Source: a plasmid. From it: DNA of 53,756 nt. The DNA is taken from the sequence record NZ_CP033797.1; one strand, given 5' to 3'. How positions within the stretch are numbered: the first letter of the stretch is position 1; each line of letters starts with the position of its first letter. The notes under the pieces are model-generated. The model was not told the DNA's origin. It did not search any database and saw nothing but the letters and a program-made list of their open reading frames with translations. Positions 799-9,300 of this stretch are shown piece after piece. Both the position numbers and the translations under genes were made by a program.

Positions 799-886
799 AA
801 ATCCTCCAACAAGAACCGACTGTAGGTCACCGGGCAAACGAGTAAAATGCTAGCATTTTGCGGCGTTTGCCCTATCCTGCATCGCT
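793..886. repeat. Inverted-repeat copy A (~93 bp, 1 mismatch versus copy B), oriT-like; contains palindrome AAAATGCTAGCATTTT plus the promoter, RBS and first two codons of taxA
   Basis: Reverse complement of 793..886 matches 6650..6742 (gcgatgcagga[t/c]agggcaaacgccgcaaaatgctagcattttactcgtttgcccggtgacctacagtcggttcttgttggaggatttatgaag). Confidence 0.85.
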
Positions 887-1075
887 GTGATCTAGTACTA
901 GTCTTGAATTGTGCTTCAGCGTCGAGGAAAAAGCAAAACTGAAGGGCTGTCATGGCTGAAGGTTTCGCTTGTCTACGACCGGAAACATCTCAATGGCTGT
1001 GAGCTATGTGGGATAAGGTTCGCTACGCGAACGGTCTGGCAGGGGGCGCAAGCGCTGTCTTGCAGAGTATATAAA

Positions 1076-1106
1076 AAAGCACCTCCCGCAAACGGGAGGG
1101 CTTCGG
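1076..1106 (-). terminator. Rho-independent terminator for the 1126..1383 gene
   Basis: Minus-strand hairpin GCCCTCCCG-TTTG-CGGGAGG followed by TTTTTT, immediately after the stop of the 85-aa gene. Confidence 0.6.
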
Positions 1107-1125
1107 CGATTCATGACGTGTGAAA

Positions 1126-1383
1126 CTATTCAGGGTCTGGTGTGTCGCCTACCATGCCCTGACGGGCATCACACAACCAGCGGCGTAAGTTGCTCATTCT
1201 TTCCCTGTTTGCGTGGCTTGGTCTTTTCCCTCTGTTTCCGGTTAAAACTCTCCAAACCCTCAGCCCTTCTTTATTCGTCCAGTGAATGACTATTTCACCT
1301 TTACTGTTGAATGCAAGGGAAAAACGAACCGCACCTTCTTTTTGTTGATCACTGATAAAAGTTAAAAACTCCTGCTTTGTCAT
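1126..1383 (-). CDS. Hypothetical protein (85 aa)
   Basis: ORF with terminator downstream; no recognisable motif. Confidence 0.4.
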   Translation of the reverse strand: MTKQEFLTFISDQQKEGAVRFSLAFNSKGEIVIHWTNKEGLRVWRVLTGNRGKRPSHANRERMSNLRRWLCDARQGMVGDTPDPE

Positions 1384-1625
1384 AAAACCTCCAATGTTTC
1401 ATTTACCAGTGAATCTATGCGCTCGTCTTTCCAGCGCTTTTTTGAGCTGATCCATGAACTCAGGGAATGCAGAGAACGGCATGATGGGAAAGACAGGGCG
1501 AGCGCCCTTTTCAACAGCCTGTATTGCTGATAGCATACGTTCCGACATTAGATATTCCTCGCGTGGGAATGAGTGTCACGGTATCAGGTTGCTCCAACAA
1601 CCTGATACCACCTTCTTTTAAAACA

Positions 1626-1967
1626 TCAGTTTTTATTCAAAAGATTAATCACCTCTCTTTTAGCTTCATTCTGCTCCTTCGTTGTGAAGGCAAAATTGAA
1701 CCATGATTCAATCTCTCTTAAAACGCCTTCTTTTGACAGGCCACATTCGTTGAACCAGAATGTTACGTTCTTTTTAAGTGAGTTAATCGCGCTAAGTTCG
1801 TTGTTATCTACTTCGCGAACAGACAAAGTAATGTAACCACGACCCCGGTTTTTTTCTTCGAATGTATGAATGGCAAGAAAAAGTGTTTCTGACTGGATGA
1901 AGGATATGCAGTTTATGGTTTCTTTTTTAACGTTTACTGATTTAAAATCGATGGCATAAGTTTTCAT
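1626..1967 (-). CDS. Hypothetical protein (113 aa)
   Basis: ORF immediately downstream of copy 1 of the duplicated 88-bp promoter/operator module. Confidence 0.45.
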   Translation of the reverse strand: MKTYAIDFKSVNVKKETINCISFIQSETLFLAIHTFEEKNRGRGYITLSVREVDNNELSAINSLKKNVTFWFNECGLSKEGVLREIESWFNFAFTTKEQNEAKREVINLLNKN

Positions 1968-1972
1968 TTTTA

Positions 1973-2060
1973 CTCCCGCCCGTTTGGGCTACTGGATTAA
2001 GGCAAGGAATCATTCCTAACCAACAAATTCAGTATACCATCATATGATGGTAATGCAATT
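1973..2060 (-). promoter_or_regulatory. 88-bp promoter/operator module, copy 1, with 18-bp perfect palindrome TACCATCATATGATGGTA (2035..2052)
   Basis: Direct repeat of 3682..3769 with about 7 mismatches. Lies directly upstream of the minus-strand gene 1626..1967. Confidence 0.7.
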
Positions 2061-2063
2061 ATT

Positions 2064-2303
2064 TTAATCCCTTTCTTTTAGAATTTCTCCACGCTTTACA
2101 AGTTGGTAAACAGGATGTTCATCAGCCAGGAGTAAAAGCATTTCATAAGTACCGGCTGCTAAACCGCGTGAAGTTTTTCCGGTAGTTTCTTTAGCCTGCC
2201 ATGCTGACAAAGTGAAGCCAAAACGATCTGCGGCTTCCTGCTGTGTAAATCCAGCTTTAATGCGAGCGTTTTTCACCTCTTCCGGCGTTGGTTTATCAAT
2301 CAT
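2064..2303 (-). CDS. XRE/Cro-type HTH DNA-binding protein (79 aa); candidate operon repressor or antitoxin
   Basis: ARIKAGFTQQEAADRFGFTLSAWQAKE helix-turn-helix. Overlaps the upstream 93-aa gene by 8 nt. Confidence 0.6.
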   Translation of the reverse strand: MIDKPTPEEVKNARIKAGFTQQEAADRFGFTLSAWQAKETTGKTSRGLAAGTYEMLLLLADEHPVYQLVKRGEILKERD

Positions 2304-2577
2304 ATTTTTTCACCTTCAACAATGTATCGACACAAAATTGCAATAATATTGGGTCTTCAATTTCATTCTTTACCCTATCAAATTCATCTTTGAAAAAAGA
2401 CTGCTGATAAACAATCTTTTTTGTTGTTTTCTTTTCAGATTCTTTTGCTCTAACCTTCATCAGTTTTTCCAGCTCGATGAAGATGCGTCCTGAATCTTCA
2501 GAAACAACAATTCTGTATGTAACATTACCTTTGTTTTTTCTGTCACTCAGTATTTCATCCATTATAATTACCTTCAT
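2296..2577 (-). CDS. Hypothetical protein (93 aa); possible toxin partner of the downstream HTH gene
   Basis: ORF with 4-nt overlap to the upstream gene and 8-nt overlap to the HTH gene. Confidence 0.4.
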   Translation of the reverse strand: MKVIIMDEILSDRKNKGNVTYRIVVSEDSGRIFIELEKLMKVRAKESEKKTTKKIVYQQSFFKDEFDRVKNEIEDPILLQFCVDTLLKVKKYD

Positions 2578-3116
2578 AGTTGTTTAATTAAGCCGGATAA
2601 CTTTACGAGCTGATCTATGTCCAATCCCCGAATCAGGACTTCATAACCATCACCACGCTCTGTCACATGCCCATTCAAACCATTTACAGCTTTAAACCCT
2701 GTTAACGTTCCGTGCCAGTTTTCAAGCTTAACAAGTTGTGACAACATGCCTTTCAGTATTTGCCTTTCTTCCCGCTTTTTCTGTAGTTTCTTCTCATACT
2801 CTCGCGAAGTTTCAACATCGTGTAATGCATTTATAAGTATTTTCTTTTCAATATCTGCGGCTATCTCTACGGGGTTACGCTGTGGTGATACAGTGCATGT
2901 ATGACATGGACTACGCCAGTTACGGCTATCCACGCTGCCTATGATAGCTAACCTTCCTTTGTCCATTCGAATGTGTACAGAATAATTTTTAAATCGTGGC
3001 GACGTTAGTTTTATACGATATTGACAATCATCCAGCAGGTTTACGCGCCAGCCGTTCCCCAGGATACGGCAGACGATTTCAAAAACAGGCCGATAGAGCA
3101 AGAAAAATGATTTCAT
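2574..3116 (-). CDS. Hypothetical protein (180 aa)
   Basis: ORF in the operon downstream of the dnaJ-like gene. Confidence 0.45.
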   Translation of the reverse strand: MKSFFLLYRPVFEIVCRILGNGWRVNLLDDCQYRIKLTSPRFKNYSVHIRMDKGRLAIIGSVDSRNWRSPCHTCTVSPQRNPVEIAADIEKKILINALHDVETSREYEKKLQKKREERQILKGMLSQLVKLENWHGTLTGFKAVNGLNGHVTERGDGYEVLIRGLDIDQLVKLSGLIKQL

Positions 3117-3159
3117 AAACTCACCTTTAAAGTGTTGGGGGCTTTCGCCCCCGTTTTAA

Positions 3160-3675
3160 CTATGCTCTGTTTTCTACTTTCTGCCTGCCAGCTGCTTTAC
3201 GCTTCCCGGCAGTGCCGTACATCTCGCGGATTTCATCAATACTGTGTTCTTTTCGGTTCCAGCGGCTCTTATGTTCTTCAGGACGGTAAAACCACTGTTT
3301 TTTCTTCGCTGCCCATTTGCAACCTATTTCTTTCAACGTGTCTTTATGTTCGCGAGTTTCCCCACTAATCCAGATCCAGTTGCCTATAACTTCATAAACT
3401 AAACCTGATAACCCGGTGAGTACGTTCAACACGCTTTCCATATCGTCACCGTAGTTATAGTGTGCGTTTTCATCGGTGCTCTGAAACGAATTAATTTTAT
3501 CGATGTTTGCCATCAGAAAATCAAAAGCAGCGTTTACAGCTTTCATCAGTTCAGCGCCTAACGGATTACGGTCTGGATGATATTTTAAAGCCGCTTTTTT
3601 ATATGCAGCCTTGATATCCTTTTCAGTCAATTCACCAGATAAACCAAAGACGTTTAATGCTTCCTGAATGTTCAT
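3160..3675 (-). CDS. J-domain (DnaJ-like) protein (171 aa)
   Basis: KAAYKKAALKYHPDRNP carries the HPD J-domain motif; first gene after promoter-module copy 2. Confidence 0.75.
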   Translation of the reverse strand: MNIQEALNVFGLSGELTEKDIKAAYKKAALKYHPDRNPLGAELMKAVNAAFDFLMANIDKINSFQSTDENAHYNYGDDMESVLNVLTGLSGLVYEVIGNWIWISGETREHKDTLKEIGCKWAAKKKQWFYRPEEHKSRWNRKEHSIDEIREMYGTAGKRKAAGRQKVENRA

Positions 3676-3681
3676 GCTTTT

Positions 3682-3769
3682 CTCCCGCCCGTTTGGGCTG
3701 CTGGATTAAGGTAGGGAGCCATTCCCAACCAACAAATTCAGTATACCATCATATGATGGTAATACAATT
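3682..3769 (-). promoter_or_regulatory. 88-bp promoter/operator module, copy 2, with palindrome TACCATCATATGATGGTA (3744..3761)
   Basis: Direct repeat of 1973..2060; upstream of the dnaJ-like operon. Confidence 0.7.
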
Positions 3770-3780
3770 GTTTTTGATTG

Positions 3781-3830
3781 CTTTGTAGTGTAAAGACACT
3801 ATAAAGACAGCGAATGCTTTACGCTGTTGA
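3781..3830. repeat. Cluster of AAAGAC/GTCTTTA motifs (same motif family as the par centromere repeats)
   Basis: gtaaagacactataaagacag...ctttacgctg resembles the repeats at 8385..8450 and 9140..9300. Confidence 0.4.
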
Positions 3831-4870
3831 ACCGTGTTTCAAAGAGGCGCGAACTGTTGTCACATTTTGCATACTCGTTACATCGCGCCGGGGACGTTCG
3901 CCAGTATTGGCGAACCAACAAGCCTGGATATGAGCAATAACCTCCTCTCCCCTGCTAAGCCAATTTCTGACTATCAGACGGCGTTTAGCCTGTCGCAGTT
4001 AGCGCGTGAGCTGGCGAACGGTACGCCGGGGCAGTGTGAAGCACTGGCGCGGGGCGCTGTATCTGCGCGTTATGAGGTGCGTTAGCAGCGCATTACGTGG
4101 CGAGTAGCTGAAACCAATTGATGCCTGACGAACTCTGACAGCAAAAAAACAATCAGGCCGCCAGCTGCTGGGCGACAATAGCCAGCAAAAAGTAACTGAC
4201 CATCATTGCCGGTCGTAAAATTTTGCTGGCATCCCATGTAAGCGGAGTTCACTCCTGATCAATTTCCAGCTTGTTACGTTAAACGAGCTGTATGCTGTTC
4301 TAAGCGGGTTTACCCCGTTCTGCTGAACCCTCGTCGGGGTAAACTCACTTAAAACGCCTCTGAGGGCTTCTGAGTGCGTTTTAGTGCTGGATCTAAAAAG
4401 GATCACTCCACGATCCTTTCCCGTTTTTTACGCATAACTTAAAAATCATCTTACTTTTAAGTTATCTTTGCTCAATGTATCTCTTTGATTTAAAAGTTTA
4501 AAACATCTATTTTTTTTTAGTTAAAATTCTTCTCACCTTTTCTCAGACCTAGGTGATCGAGAAACGGCACCGCTCGCCGCAGTCTTTGGCTGAGGCGTAC
4601 CGCAGGAGCATAGCGACGAGGAACGAACAGCCAAAGCGAGGAAGCGGAATATCTGCTGCTCTGACAGAGAGCACGTACACTCAATGGCTAAAATATGAAC
4701 ACCTTATGTTTTGCTCCAACTTCCGAAGGTTAGAAGGATCTATCCTCTGGGTTTATGCTGAGTTATCCACAGGTACTGTGCATTAAAAGCCTTATATATA
4801 TTTTCTTTTCTTAAAGATCTTAAAGAATTAGAGGTTTTTAATTATCTGATATATATAGGAAAAATAAGCT

Positions 4871-5002
4871 AAACATGATGGTGGATGCGATGAAACATGA
4901 TGATAAATGCGATTAAACATGATGGGAAATGCGACGAGGCATGATGAAAAATGCGTTTTACCATGATGGAAAATGCGACGAAACATGATGGAAAATGCGA
5001 CG
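4871..5002. repeat. Gamma-ori-type iteron array: six contiguous 22-bp iterons (AAACATGATGNNNNATGCGANN) preceded by an A+T-rich segment (about 4790..4870)
   Basis: Tandem 22-mers aaacatgatggtggatgcgatg / aaacatgatgataaatgcgatt / aaacatgatgggaaatgcgacg / aggcatgatgaaaaatgcgttt / taccatgatggaaaatgcgacg / aaacatgatggaaaatgcgacg. No spacers, so not CRISPR. Confidence 0.85.
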
Positions 5003-5125
5003 CTATTAACAGCTTGATTTAAAAGCTTCATATCTGAAGATCTTTGTATGTGAAGTCATCAAGGCGTGCGTTTTATGAGCACATTGGCTGGAGCCTGTCT
5101 GGTTTCGCTGAGTCGCTAAGCGGAC

Positions 5126-5169
5126 AAACATGATGATAAATGCGAATAAACATGATGGAAAAAATAACT
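5126..5169. promoter_or_regulatory. Two further iterons in the pir promoter region (autoregulation operator)
   Basis: aaacatgatgataaatgcgaat and aaacatgatggaaaaaataact, followed by an inverted half-site tcatcatgtt, about 45 bp upstream of pir. Confidence 0.6.
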
Positions 5170-5211
5170 TCATCATGTTAATGTGGCTACTCTTTAGTGA
5201 GAGGTTTTATG

Positions 5212-6111
5212 AGAATAAAAGTTATGAAAAATGTAACTGAAAAAACGAAGATTCGTCACAGGAACGAAATAAATAAAACTCTGGCTCAACTTCCATTGGC
5301 AGCCAAAAGGGTTCTGTGTCTGGCCTTGGTTTATGTTGATCCAAAAAAAGAAATGAAAATGGGGCAGACCTTTAAAATTCGGGCTGATATGTACGCAAAG
5401 ATAGCCGGAATACATCCTTCTGTTGCTTATAAGCAAGTCAAGGAAGGTGCTGAATTGTTAAATGTCAGTAAACTTTCCCTTACGGGGAATGATATGAAGG
5501 AATTAGCAAAGGAACTTGGTCTTCCAAATTCAAAAAACATCGACCGCCTTGACTTATCGATTACTGATTATTGTGCATATAACCAAAATGAGGGATTTGT
5601 AATTCTAAGATTTGGATACACTATCACGCCTTATATATCAAGATTAATTGGGGCGGAAAATAAATTCACAACACAACTAATTGCGTCCTCATTAAAATTG
5701 AGAGGGGAGTATTCGTGGTCATTGTATCAGTTAATTAGGAAGAATTACTCAACGTTTAAAGGGAAAAATTCATTTAGCCTATCTCTGGAAGAGTTGAAGG
5801 ATGAACTTATTGCTTACAATATTGATGATAATGGAGATATTATATATAAGTATCCAGAGTACCCTATATTCAAGCGAGAGGTAATAAATAAGGCTATCAA
5901 AGAAATAAAAGAAAAAACTGAGGTGACTTTCCTGTCTTGCGTTGTCGATGAAAAAGAAGGAAGGAAAGTTAGTAAGTTACGATTTGAATACGCTATAGAT
6001 GAAGATAAATTTGCCGAATCAGGCTCTGATTTTCCTATAGAGTTATTTGACGATGATGATTCTGCTTTTCTTGAGGAGTTTGATAGAAAAGTACCACCCA
6101 AAAAGAAATGA
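5212..6111 (+). CDS. pir: Replication initiator pi protein (R6K Pir-like, iteron-binding Rep)
   Basis: MRIKVMKNVTEKTKIRHRNEINKTLAQLPL... recognised as R6K pi (MRLKVMMDVNKKTKIRHRNELNHTLAQLPL...). Start chosen after the GAGAGG RBS; sits downstream of the iterons. Confidence 0.9.
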   Translation, partial: RIKVMKNVTEKTKIRHRNEINKTLAQLPLAAKRVLCLALVYVDPKKEMKMGQTFKIRADMYAKIAGIHPSVAYKQVKEGAELLNVSKLSLTGNDMKELAKELGLPNSKNIDRLDLSITDYCAYNQNEGFVILRFGYTITPYISRLIGAENKFTTQLIASSLKLRGEYSWSLYQLIRKNYSTFKGKNSFSLSLEELKDELIAYNIDDNGDIIYKYPEYPIFKREVINKAIKEIKEKTEVTFLSCVVDEKEGRKVSKLRFEYAIDEDKFAESGSDFPIELFDDDDSAFLEEFDRKVPPKKK

Positions 6112-6563: not shown

Positions 6564-6649
6564 ACCAGTCGCAAGCTGCCTGCTTGCACTGTGCATGTTT
6601 GCCTTATACCATCGGTTTAGCATAGTGCGCGATGTGAGTTCTTTTCAAT

Positions 6650-6742
6650 GCGATGCAGGACAGGGCAAACGCCGCAAAATGCTAGCATTTTACTCGTTTG
6701 CCCGGTGACCTACAGTCGGTTCTTGTTGGAGGATTTATGAAG
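6650..6742. repeat. Inverted-repeat copy B (oriT-like), supplying promoter, RBS and start codon for the 6737..7093 gene
   Basis: Matches the reverse complement of 793..886. Confidence 0.85.
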
Positions 6743-8373: not shown

Positions 8374-8469
8374 ACAAAATCCTCATTAAAGACACTATCT
8401 AAGTGTAAATACTATAGTGTCTTTATGTTGTCTTTACAATGTAAATTTCTATGTATTCGATTGAAATAT

Positions 8470-9132
8470 TTAGATTATCCCTATTTCCTGGGCGACTAAT
8501 TCTATCTGTGCTTTTGCTGTTGTCAGACTGGAGGCGCGGCTTACATCATGTACCCCTGCCCCTTCATTGCAGGCGCTTTCAAACACATCCAATTCTGACA
8601 TGCGGTTTTTTAGTGGCTGTATCCAGACGTCGTCTGAGCGTAATAATTTATCCAGCTCAATAGCGGCTTTTCTGTGGCGTGGCTTGCTTGGGTTTATTCT
8701 GGTAAGTAGTACCCAGGGTTGCAGGGCTGCGTTTGATTTCTGAGCCATGCGGACTTTCTCGGTTACGCTCGTCAGTGTTTCACTTTCAAAGTCAGATGAC
8801 GCTTTAACCAGAGTTATCATGATATCTGACACAGTCAGTGCGCTACGGAACTCAAGGCTGTCATGTCCGGGGCAGTCAACGATCAGAACATCGCACAGCT
8901 TGCTCAGGCGGTTAATCTCTTTGCTTACATTACCGTATGCCTCGTAGACTGGTACTGTTGGGAGGCTATTCTCCCTGCGTTTTTCATTCCAGCTGATAAG
9001 GTCATTGTTCTTATCGGTTTTAAGGATGATTACCGATTTTTCTCTGTTTGCCAGCATAGATGCTGTGTTAGCCGAGTAGGTGCTTTTCCCTACCCCGCCC
9101 TTATCTGAAACCACCAGTAAAATTTTTCCCAT
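8470..9132 (-). CDS. parA: ParA/ParF-family partition ATPase
   Basis: MGKILLVVSDKGGVGKST is a deviant Walker A; 220 aa. Confidence 0.8.
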   Translation of the reverse strand: MGKILLVVSDKGGVGKSTYSANTASMLANREKSVIILKTDKNNDLISWNEKRRENSLPTVPVYEAYGNVSKEINRLSKLCDVLIVDCPGHDSLEFRSALTVSDIMITLVKASSDFESETLTSVTEKVRMAQKSNAALQPWVLLTRINPSKPRHRKAAIELDKLLRSDDVWIQPLKNRMSELDVFESACNEGAGVHDVSRASSLTTAKAQIELVAQEIGII

Positions 9133-9139
9133 TTCCGCA

Positions 9140-9300
9140 TCCTCGTATTTACGATGTAAAGCTTTTCATGTCTTTACGGTGTCTTTAACTTATAAAGATA
9201 TAGGCGTCTTTATAGTGTCTTTATACTCTTTATGTTTTACGATGTAAATAGAGTATAAAGATAAGTATGTCTTTATGTGTGCTTTACATGGTAAAGCTCA
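9140..9300. repeat. Centromere-like repeat array (GTCTTTA/TAAAGAC/GTAAAG motifs) upstream of parA
   Basis: More than 10 copies of the motif in both orientations between parA and res; a smaller set at 8385..8450 sits between parA and the RHH gene. Confidence 0.6.

Follow-up and report, generated by a model that had tools for sequence, protein, structure and literature searches.

Twin promoter cassettes with a shared palindrome and a candidate autorepressor in the leading region of an IncX5 plasmid

A 53,756 bp stretch of plasmid DNA was analysed (record NZ_CP033797.1; hereafter the window, to which all coordinates refer). The window is an IncX5 resistance plasmid. Over its first 7 kb it matches an IncFII+IncX5 plasmid of Enterobacter asburiae with 100% identity, and many Enterobacterales plasmids, about 36-107 kb and mostly 42-66 kb in size, with 99.6-99.7%. 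Here we examined a promoter cassette which is present twice in this part, termed P1 and P2, and a protein of 79 amino acids (aa) with a helix-turn-helix (HTH) which is encoded between the two copies. From left to right the region contains the relaxase gene and ddp1/taxA (to 798), an inverted-repeat arm (793-890), a set of leftward genes (1126-3675), approximately 1.1 kb of non-coding DNA, 22-bp iterons (4874-5001), rep (5197-6111), the gene for a 147-aa protein, a second arm (6645-6742) and ddp3; ddp1 and ddp3 were identified by NCBIfam. Megablast of the region against a phage collection gave no match, and a phage origin was rejected on this basis.

Twin cassettes on the minus strand

The two cassettes and the gene of the proposed repressor consist of the following elements.

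3673-3767, minus strand: cassette P2, from the -35 to the ATG of the J-domain gene, 95 nt (regular expression and alignment; repeat family)
3762-3767, minus strand: -35 of P2, TTGTAT (read from the sequence; position kept in all cassette relatives)
3744-3761, no strand: predicted operator O2, TACCATCATATGATGGTA, which occupies the whole 16-nt spacer and shares 2 nt with the -10 (covaries with the HTH protein class by class)
3740-3745, minus strand: -10 of P2, TATACT (alignment; TATAAT at the homologous position in IncX3 and IncX1)
3710-3730, minus strand: leader hairpin 1 of P2, 5'-proximal, about 3 nt from the predicted transcription start (compensatory change from A:U to G:C versus P1)
3682-3698, minus strand: leader hairpin 2 of P2, GCCC-AAAC-GGGC (3687-3698), with the directly adjoining Shine-Dalgarno sequence GGGAG (3682-3686)
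2064-2303, minus strand: gene for the 79-aa XRE-fold HTH protein, the proposed repressor (structure model, family alignment)
1965-2058, minus strand: cassette P1, from the -35 to the ATG of the 113-aa gene, 94 nt (repeat and alignment)
2053-2058, minus strand: -35 of P1, TTGCAT, 5 nt past the stop codon of the HTH gene (read from the sequence, alignment)
2035-2052, no strand: predicted operator O1, TACCATCATATGATGGTA (palindrome search)
2031-2036, minus strand: -10 of P1, TATACT (alignment)
2001-2021, minus strand: leader hairpin 1 of P1 (folding)
1973-1989, minus strand: leader hairpin 2 of P1 (1978-1989) with the Shine-Dalgarno sequence GGGAG (1973-1977)

A sequence-only reading of the locus had described two copies of 88 bp, about 92% identical, each with a perfect palindrome of 18 bp. 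Both statements were borne out. Positions 1973-2060 and 3682-3769 differ at 7 of 88 positions, i.e. 81 are alike and the identity is 92.0%. Free of gaps, the repeat extends to 1969-2065 and 3678-3774 (97 nt, 91% identity). Outside the repeat the similarity is lost, with 8 matches in 20 positions at 1953-1972 and 7 in 20 at 2061-2080. The perfect palindrome TACCATCATATGATGGTA is found at 2035-2052 and 3744-3761 only; no further site with up to three mismatches is present in the entire window. By chance 0.02 sites are expected, and two or more sites were present in none of 100 shuffles. A part of the leader, CCAGNAGCCCAAACGGGCGGGAG, also occurs just twice in the window. The duplicated module is not peculiar to this plasmid. 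In a blastn search with a 116-nt query 1,120 PLSDB records carried it, and in 57 of 60 sampled records it was located at two places.

On the minus strand the order is -35, a 16-nt spacer (TACCATCATATGATGG), TATACT, about 7 nt to the probable transcription start, a stem-loop with nine pair positions, a linker, the GCCC-AAAC-GGGC hairpin, GGGAG, 5-6 nt and the ATG. The transcription start is predicted at about G2024 for P1 and about 3733 for P2. The palindrome is placed exactly in the spacer between -35 and -10 in both copies and its arm positions are TACCATCA. TTGCAT or TTGTAT, the 16-nt spacer and TATACT constitute a predicted sigma-70 promoter. The positions of the hexamers are conserved in all relatives, and the distance from the -35 to the ATG is always 90-98 nt. 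Of the repeat that had been designated an 88-bp promoter module, only about 30 of the 88 nt represent predicted promoter and operator, and the rest is a conserved, structured transcribed leader (about 57 nt per cassette, with two hairpins) and a ribosome-binding site. The HTH gene was said to end 4 bp before copy 1. Its stop codon at 2064-2066 actually lies 3 nt beyond the end of the copy as then delimited and 5 nt before the -35.

The 79-aa protein and the operator classes

A model of the 79-aa protein calculated with AlphaFold2 (AF2) had a predicted local distance difference test (pLDDT) score of 79.6 and contained five helices (residues 7-17, 21-27, 32-39, 50-59 and 69-77). According to this model the protein has a five-helix XRE fold. 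Helices 2 (residues 21-27) and 3 (residues 32-39, TLSAWQAK, the recognition helix) form the HTH. In a Foldseek comparison with the PDB the top 25 matches were XRE-type HTH or HTH DNA-binding proteins, with probabilities mostly of 0.91-1.00 and TM-scores up to 0.77. The best were the C-terminal domain of MqsA, Aca1, Aca10, the C-proteins C.BclI and C.Esp1396I, HipB and 434 Cro. MqsA, Aca, C-proteins, HipB and 434 Cro are HTH proteins with palindromic operators. A sequence search of the PDB yielded a best E-value of about 0.3. The search for homologous proteins gave only relatives with at least 65% identity; the breadth of the family was established by tblastn on PLSDB, in which 4,242 records were matched, including IncX, IncI2 and IncL/M plasmids.

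Cassettes of the same design are carried by these relatives. Representative loci were from IncX3 (L002), IncX1 (L003), IncX4 (L004), IncI2 (L005 and a second one, L008) and pOXA-48 (L006). The number of cassettes was as follows.

IncX3: 2 cassettes, heading the J-domain gene and the 112-aa gene
IncX1: 2 cassettes
IncX4: 2 cassettes
IncX4-typed plasmid: 3 cassettes
IncI2: 3 or 4 cassettes
Arsenophonus plasmid: 1 cassette found, heading the J-domain gene
IncL pOXA-48: 3 cassettes
IncM plasmid: at least 2 cassettes

The HTH proteins of the relatives were aligned and the cassettes were read, taking as operators the 18-mers in the same frame relative to the -10. This resulted in six putative operator classes.

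IncX5 and IncX3: recognition helix FTLSAWQAKE, operator TACCATCATATGATGGTA
IncX1: recognition helix YQLNSWQMKE, operator TACCTGCAAATGCAGGTA
Arsenophonus: recognition helix ISLNYWQRKE, operator TACTGACTATAGTCAGTA
IncX4: recognition helix VGLRTWQKKE, operator TACGACTTAAAGGTCGTA
IncI2: recognition helix VGLSTWQKKE, operator TACATCTAAATAGATGTA
IncX4-typed plasmid and second IncI2: recognition helix M[TS]PRTWRRKE, operator TAGGTCA-N4-TGACCTA

The six classes pair one-to-one with six variants of the recognition helix. In the TAGGTCA-N4-TGACCTA class the HTH proteins are 88% identical on two different backbones. All copies on one plasmid, two to four in number, carry the same arms. Among the copies of one plasmid the divergence is 2.0% in the operator arms, 18.1% in the operator centre and 8.8% in the leader; for the arms it rises to 48.6% between classes. 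Such a pattern would be expected for a dimeric protein that contacts the arms, not the centre, and co-evolves with them. The IncX4 and IncI2 loci L004 and L005 share J-domain proteins with 99% identity, yet their HTH proteins are 68% and the small proteins encoded upstream of them 42% identical, and the operators differ. Here the repressor/operator part seems to have been exchanged, or to be diversifying, as a specificity module comparable to phage immunity regions.

Could the repeat be a recent duplication of a promoter and 5'-untranslated region which is kept alike by gene conversion, the palindrome and the hairpins being without regulatory function? Copies within a plasmid are indeed more alike than copies between plasmids, suggesting concerted evolution. 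Yet the architecture is retained across groups at about 50% sequence divergence and at constant length. Each of the six classes has its palindrome rebuilt from another sequence, conservation is higher in the arms than in the centre, and the hairpins have compensatory changes. This explanation we consider very improbable.

Next, the relationship to replication is considered, because the sequence-only reading had placed the module in the replication region. In the pir operator of R6K inverted half-sites are bound by Rep dimers. In a similar manner the palindrome might consist of inverted iteron half-sites for Rep dimers, coupling the operons to replication control, and the IncX5 iterons AAACATGATGGAAAATGCGACG (4874-5001, 5129-5150) do share the heptamer ATGATGG with the operator half-site. 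Across plasmids the operator does not change with the iterons. IncX3 combines the identical operator with unrelated iterons (TGAAAAATCCTCTCACCTTACG), IncX1 has IncX3-type iterons and a different operator, and IncI2 plasmids, which do not use this Rep type, have the same cassette design. On this comparison a Rep/iteron operator was rejected as extremely improbable. In view of the combination in IncX3 the shared heptamer is apparently a coincidence. The operator goes with the HTH protein and not with the replicon, i.e. the type of Rep and iteron.

Which protein might bind the palindrome? In every relative examined a small gene is located immediately upstream of the HTH gene and overlaps with it; similarity among these small genes was demonstrated within IncX3/X5 and within IncX4/IncI2. 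In the window it encodes a 93-aa protein. It diverges in step with the HTH gene, as the 42% identity between IncX4 and IncI2 compared with 99% for the J-domain proteins illustrates, and covariation cannot separate the two. The palindrome may be an operator on which the 93-aa protein acts by itself or jointly with the HTH protein as co-repressor. Further candidates are a host factor or VirBR, a proven DNA-binding protein (PMC11214620) with an orthologue encoded downstream of P1; in each case the HTH protein would have another role. However, no DNA-binding domain was detected in the 93-aa family by Pfam or NCBIfam. The VirBR site is AT-rich and non-palindromic (PMC11214620), and VirBR is absent from IncI2, IncX4 and IncL, all of which have cassettes. 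In pOXA-48, deletion of orf19, the upstream gene, was neutral whereas orf20, the HTH gene, was undeletable (PMC12365149), and the site turns from palindromic to asymmetric together with the change from a single to a tandem HTH domain. Consequently, a binding protein other than the HTH protein is considered unlikely.

The same gene pair raises the question of a type II toxin-antitoxin system. The 93-aa and 79-aa genes are small and overlapping, the weak matches of the latter product are MqsA, HipB and Xre antitoxins, one relative bears the annotation 'antitoxin Xre-like HTH', and the homologue in pOXA-48 is essential for plasmid maintenance. The palindrome would then merely serve conditional autoregulation of a toxin-antitoxin pair with an MqsA- or HipB-like antitoxin. 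This would be at odds with the place of the operator, which heads a four-gene operon 1.4 kb upstream of the pair and has a second copy before unrelated genes. The 93-aa protein matched no toxin family in Pfam or NCBIfam. Depletion of transposon insertions in orf19 of pOXA-48 is ascribed by the authors to polarity on orf20, and deletion of orf19 alone was neutral, which is not expected of an upstream toxin (PMC12365149). In addition, IncX3 mutants with partial deletions of the HTH gene appear viable (PMC11880322). A toxin-antitoxin system is highly improbable.

The sequence-only reading had proposed that the shared operator is bound by the 79-aa HTH protein, giving rise to an autoregulated two-promoter regulon. 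By comparison this is supported by the position in the spacer, the shared arms, the match of six classes with the recognition helix, the independence of the replicon and the XRE fold. We judge an autoregulated repressor-operator mechanism for the twin cassettes to be likely. Its surprise is moderate as an autoregulated HTH repressor with a palindromic operator in the promoter is a textbook principle.

Transcription units, leaders and virBR

The genes and further features around the cassettes are these.

3160-3675, minus strand: gene for a J-domain protein of 171 aa that has an HPD motif, at the head of the P2 unit (Pfam DnaJ, E 1.5e-10)
3136-3153, minus strand: GC-rich hairpin that separates the genes for the J-domain and 180-aa proteins; the sense strand has no U-run
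2574-3116, minus strand: gene for a 180-aa protein, conserved in IncX3, IncI2 and Arsenophonus
2296-2577, minus strand: gene for the 93-aa protein (88 aa in the RefSeq version), overlaps the HTH gene from upstream
1626-1967, minus strand: gene for a 113-aa protein, at the head of the P1 unit (identity 60% with the IncX3 112-aa protein and 48% with an IncX1 59-aa protein)
1580-1609, no strand: GGTATCAGGTTG-N6-CAACCTGATACC, a perfect palindrome (stem of 12 bp) located upstream of the 49-aa gene and virBR
1399-1548, minus strand: conserved open reading frame (ORF) of 49 aa (63-83% identity among IncX1, X3 and X5; annotated in RefSeq)
1126-1383, minus strand: gene for the orthologue of the counter-silencer VirBR, 85 aa, 258 bp (78% identical to the IncX3 85-aa gene)
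1082-1099, minus strand: intrinsic terminator after virBR, 7-bp GC stem and U-run; the first canonical terminator downstream of P2 and P1
793-890, no strand: left arm of the inverted repeat, proposed as one of twin origins of transfer (oriT), 98 nt, 97% complementary to its partner at 6645-6742, upstream of ddp1/taxA

Copy 2 had been said to drive an operon of dnaJ-180aa-93aa-HTH and copy 1 the genes for the 113-aa and 85-aa proteins. The layout of the reading frames is as described; the conserved 49-aa ORF was missed. In a terminator scan no U-run terminator was detected between P2 and 1082-1099, including the stretch between the HTH gene and P1. The two operons are therefore probably nested transcription units, both ending at the 1082-1099 terminator. 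The 171-aa J-domain protein is 77-87% identical to the first cassette-driven gene product in IncX3, X4, IncI2 and the Arsenophonus plasmid. For the 180-aa protein Pfam and NCBIfam gave no match at all, and for the cargo proteins together (J-domain with HPD, 180, 93, 113 and 49 aa) they yielded no assignable function. As a speculation, Rep might be activated in a new host by the DnaK of that host, recruited by the J-domain protein.

The 85-aa protein is 78% identical to the product of the 85-aa gene at the corresponding position of IncX3 and its length is that of VirBR. VirBR is encoded by a gene of 258 bp, has 85 aa, and R20, R42 and R67 are functionally essential (PMC11214620). R20, R42 and R67 are all present in the protein of the window. 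It is encoded between the HTH region and taxA, and in length and location it agrees with the description of VirBR (PMC11214620). By these sequence features the 85-aa gene is the IncX5 orthologue of virBR. VirBR displaces a plasmid H-NS homologue from PactX and thereby switches on the T4SS (type IV secretion system) (PMC11915502). In IncX1, X3 and X5 virBR is located downstream of a cassette with no other cassette between, and it is preceded by an ORF of 49/50 aa and a nearly invariant palindrome with a 12-bp stem. In the window this palindrome (1580-1609) is unique and has no U-run on the sense strand; it is nearly invariant in IncX3 (L002, ~3727-3758) and IncX1 (L003, ~3201-3233). It could be a further operator, or an element of RNA processing or stability that controls virBR. 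If transcription from P1 reads through, the HTH circuit would set the level of VirBR and a newly entered plasmid would transiently over-express it. Whether virBR belongs to the regulon we regard as evenly balanced.

Then the leaders were examined. Folded singly, each cassette copy formed the same two hairpins at the same positions. Because differing loop lengths shift the 3' arms, RNAalifold on MAFFT alignments recovered 7 pairs only, and the structure was assessed by per-sequence folds and by an anchored pair count with shuffles and register-slide controls. With hairpin 1 anchored at a fixed column, 84% of the cells were standard pairs in register compared with 43-62% when slid by 1-3 nt. Across lineages double, i.e. 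compensatory, changes are present at 5 of 9 pair positions. Per-sequence shuffles resulted in P values of 0.001-0.07, except for IncL (0.05-0.08) and IncN (0.2-0.3). Between P1 and P2 the stem of hairpin 1 shows a double change from A:U to G:C and a change from U.G to U:A. The leader stems contain 15 G.U pairs versus one A.C mismatch, which argues for folding of the sense strand, i.e. of the mRNA, and not for a second protein site in double-stranded DNA. An Rfam scan of 800-5200 gave, by E-value, only two chance-level matches, both to eukaryotic families. Hairpin 2 abuts the Shine-Dalgarno sequence and can partly pair with it. Hairpin 1, about 3 nt from the predicted 5' end, would be suited to protect the 5' end of the mRNA. 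Most likely, the leader hairpins are RNA elements for 5'-end stabilisation of the mRNA and for setting translation initiation.

The cassette region is the leading, or establishment, region between a twin oriT and the replication origin (oriV), since its genes adjoin the oriT arm on the side away from the relaxase gene. The earlier placement inside the replication module was accordingly not borne out; the segment is an oriT-side leading region, a relative of the IncN CUP regulon. All genes between 1126 and 3675 are transcribed towards the oriT arm, and an orientation towards oriT has been reported for leading-region genes (PMC11541004). The arm at 793-890 is presumably nicked in the usual orientation. 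The 98-nt inverted repeat (793-890/6645-6742) encloses the entire oriV/rep/leading segment and adjoins ddp1 and ddp3 upstream, and a palindrome, AAAATGCTAGCATTTT, is present in each arm. It is consistent with the two oriTs described for R6K and IncX3 where PMC11915502 cites Avila et al. 1996.

About 1.1 kb of non-coding DNA (3775-4870) separate P2 from the iterons. A different type of palindrome, CTTTAC-N3-GTAAAG, has nine strand-wise matches in the window compared with 0.9 expected, located at 3781-3795, 8432-8446, 9147-9161, 9235-9249 and 9282-9296. They cluster in the promoter region of a parA-like gene (8470-9132), and one weaker copy is located a short way upstream of the P2 -35. Six to seven repeats of the motif are present in the IncI2 loci L005 and L008. 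This suggests a second, global regulator acting on P2 but not on P1.

The proposed mechanism would operate in the following manner. P2 would transcribe the genes for the J-domain, 180-aa, 93-aa and 79-aa HTH proteins. Transcription from P1 would cover the 113-aa gene and continue by read-through into the 49-aa gene and virBR, ending at the 1082-1099 terminator. A dimer of the 79-aa XRE-fold protein would bind both operators, occlude RNA polymerase and shut both promoters including its own. Upon entry of the plasmid into a repressor-free recipient both strong promoters would fire. A burst of establishment proteins and of VirBR would ensue, and VirBR would de-silence the T4SS. As the repressor accumulates, a low steady state would be reached, i.e. 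negative feedback with an overshoot, known as zygotic induction.

Several points speak against this mechanism. With only 3 of 6 consensus bases in their -35 hexamers, P1 and P2 were missed by a generic promoter scan of the window. In Pfam the 79-aa protein stayed below threshold (HTH_31, 16.2 bits with a cut-off of 27; HTH_3, 15.4 bits with a cut-off of 23), the HTH/MqsA-type matches in NCBIfam were sub-threshold, and the Foldseek E-values were just about 0.03. The HTH gene and the operators are physically linked, and co-inheritance of a recombining module could explain part of the class correlation. The contrast between arms and centre argues for selection, not for a particular binding protein. 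Single leaders had folding z-scores of -0.2 to -3.0 (those of the window -1.3 and -0.2); with such modest values stability alone is no evidence. Read-through from P1 to virBR must cross the palindrome at 1580-1609, and the VirBR authors predicted a separate promoter upstream of virBR (PMC11214620). The IncX3 deletion mutant rs00275 was viable and its transfer rate changed less than 12-fold (PMC11880322). By the matching numbering of locus tags rs00275 is probably the HTH gene, and its phenotype indicates that derepression is not dramatic for conjugation, at least in steady-state donors. The anatomy of the sequence, its conservation, the co-variation of operator and HTH, the HTH fold and the identity of VirBR are shown here, and promoter activity, binding, repression, virBR read-through and burst kinetics are inferred.

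blaNDM-5, mcr-1 and blaOXA-48 are carried mainly by IncX3, IncX4, IncI2 and IncL plasmids; to our knowledge, little is understood of how the establishment phase of these plasmids is regulated. Possibly, the 79-aa protein and its relatives are a hitherto unrecognised family of establishment repressors in IncX, IncI2 and IncL/M, with specificities like those of phage immunity, that control reiterated CUP-type leading-region cassettes. We put this forward tentatively and hold it to be somewhat doubtful. If true, VirBR would be subject to zygotic induction in IncX and fresh transconjugants would be transiently hyper-conjugative. A resident plasmid of the same class would repress in trans the establishment genes of an incoming one, driving the diversification of repressor and operator. 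The two-hairpin leader would be a new cis-acting RNA element common to all CUP-type cassettes. If the mechanism proposed above holds, VirBR, whose control is described only as 'metal-inducible', would obtain a concrete upstream regulator, and operator classes would be defined which could mediate cross-talk or establishment interference between co-resident plasmids.

Comparison with known regulatory systems

According to their annotation, CUP elements are repeats conserved at the head of co-oriented operons in the leading region of IncN plasmids, and each contains a promoter and a binding site for ArdK (PMC5371602). Binding and repression by ArdK have been demonstrated by experiment on an IncN plasmid (PMC6289460). 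In IncX5 a repeated element similarly heads co-oriented operons beside oriT, with two copies and two strings of genes on the minus strand. The layout recurs in the R46 elements upstream of ardB, ccgD, ardA and ccgAI, which measure 97-98 nt between -35 and ATG and comprise a start of the CATCG type, leader hairpin 1, the GC hairpin 2 and a Shine-Dalgarno sequence. IncX5 and R46 cassettes can be aligned via IncX4, IncI2 and IncL intermediates; the direct identity is low, with five invariant columns only. A cassette-driven 92-aa protein of IncI2 is 48% identical to CcgD, and a 59-aa protein of pOXA-48 is 56% identical to CcgAI. In view of the shared layout and length, the CcgD and CcgAI homologues and the promoter and ArdK site described for each CUP, the IncX5 repeat would qualify as a short CUP-type cassette, a variant of the IncN CUP regulon. 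If the proposed mechanism holds, the 1997 concept of the IncN 'CUP' would be widened to a cassette family in at least five incompatibility groups with exchangeable repressor/operator modules.

There are differences. The repressor is unrelated: BLASTP of the 79-aa HTH protein gave no alignment with ArdK and E = 3.4 with ArdR, and both were rejected as homologues. An all-against-all BLAST of the window proteins with the R46 Ccg proteins, ArdR and ArdK (a set without ArdA and ArdB) produced no match. The IncX operator is an 18-bp palindrome in the spacer, whereas the R46 spacer is non-palindromic. A block of R46 overlapping the -35, CGTACTTGTATTGAC, is common to the CUPs and the ardK promoter and absent from the IncX5 cassettes; it is a candidate for the ArdK site. 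The IncX5 repeat comprises 97 nt and lacks the GC-rich upstream part of about 200-300 nt. This long part is also missing from the IncX3 and IncX1 cassettes. The IncX4 and IncI2 repeats continue for 200-330 nt upstream of the promoter as GC-rich sequence with a hairpin and an A-run at its end, as in the R46 CUP.

Long repeats in L004: 3168-3586 and 5249-5667
Long repeats in L005: 2418-2866, 3375-3596 and 5370-5818

In the window an imperfect inverted repeat (4297-4317/4335-4355) contains CGGGGTAAACTCACTT, a sequence similar to GGGGTAAACTCGCTT in the long GC-rich portion that lies upstream in the IncX4 cassette repeats. A full-length CUP element may have left this remnant behind. The full-text literature, of which our coverage is incomplete, contained no paper tying CUP elements to IncX, IncI2 or IncL and none on the IncX HTH protein or palindrome.

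The second known case is Orf20 of pOXA-48 (DNDJGHEP_0014), an essential 'XRE-like regulator' the targets of which were left open (PMC12365149, PMC12361523). Its HTH domain is homologous, with 38-42% identity, it is the last gene of a cassette-headed operon, and pOXA-48 carries three cassettes of the same design. KorC of IncL/M was rejected as the relative; the pOXA-48 homologue is orf20, and the KorC site is reported in the orf24-korC promoter. Unlike the IncX5 protein, Orf20 is a 159-aa tandem duplication of the HTH domain (gene at L006 5977-6456), and it is essential whereas the IncX3 orthologue seems deletable. The pOXA-48 cassettes (L006 5396, 6914 and 11173) contain an asymmetric 18-mer, TATGGCTCATTAGACGTA, in the same frame, with a variant upstream of orf19. 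This 18-mer is the predicted Orf20 operator; an asymmetric site is what one would expect for a single-chain pseudo-dimer. If so, the essentiality of Orf20, left open by the two papers of 2025 (PMC12365149, PMC12361523), would receive a mechanism and predicted sites, the cassette promoters running away when Orf20 is missing.

Aca (anti-CRISPR-associated) repressors and the controller C-proteins of restriction-modification systems are small dimeric XRE-fold proteins which repress their own operons; palindromes over a strong promoter allow a burst upon cell entry, followed by shut-down. The IncX5 circuit as proposed would work in this way too, as does the IncN CUP/ArdK regulon; in each, a small repressor from within the unit restrains strong promoters which have to fire at entry. 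Aca1, Aca10, C.BclI and C.Esp1396I are among the best structural matches of the 79-aa protein. Those proteins, however, act in phage or restriction-modification contexts on one promoter, whereas in IncX5 the context is a leading region with a multi-copy cassette. We know of no anti-defence function of the IncX5 cargo genes. Lastly, networks of the Kor/ArdK type (KorA/B/C of RK2, ArdK/StbA of R388) reportedly combine a plasmid-encoded, autoregulating repressor with reiterated operators at several backbone promoters, and an overshoot of transcription after transfer is predicted for them. Protein family and operator are different in IncX5, and, unlike in those networks, the entire cassette of promoter, leader and ribosome-binding site is reiterated and not the operator alone.

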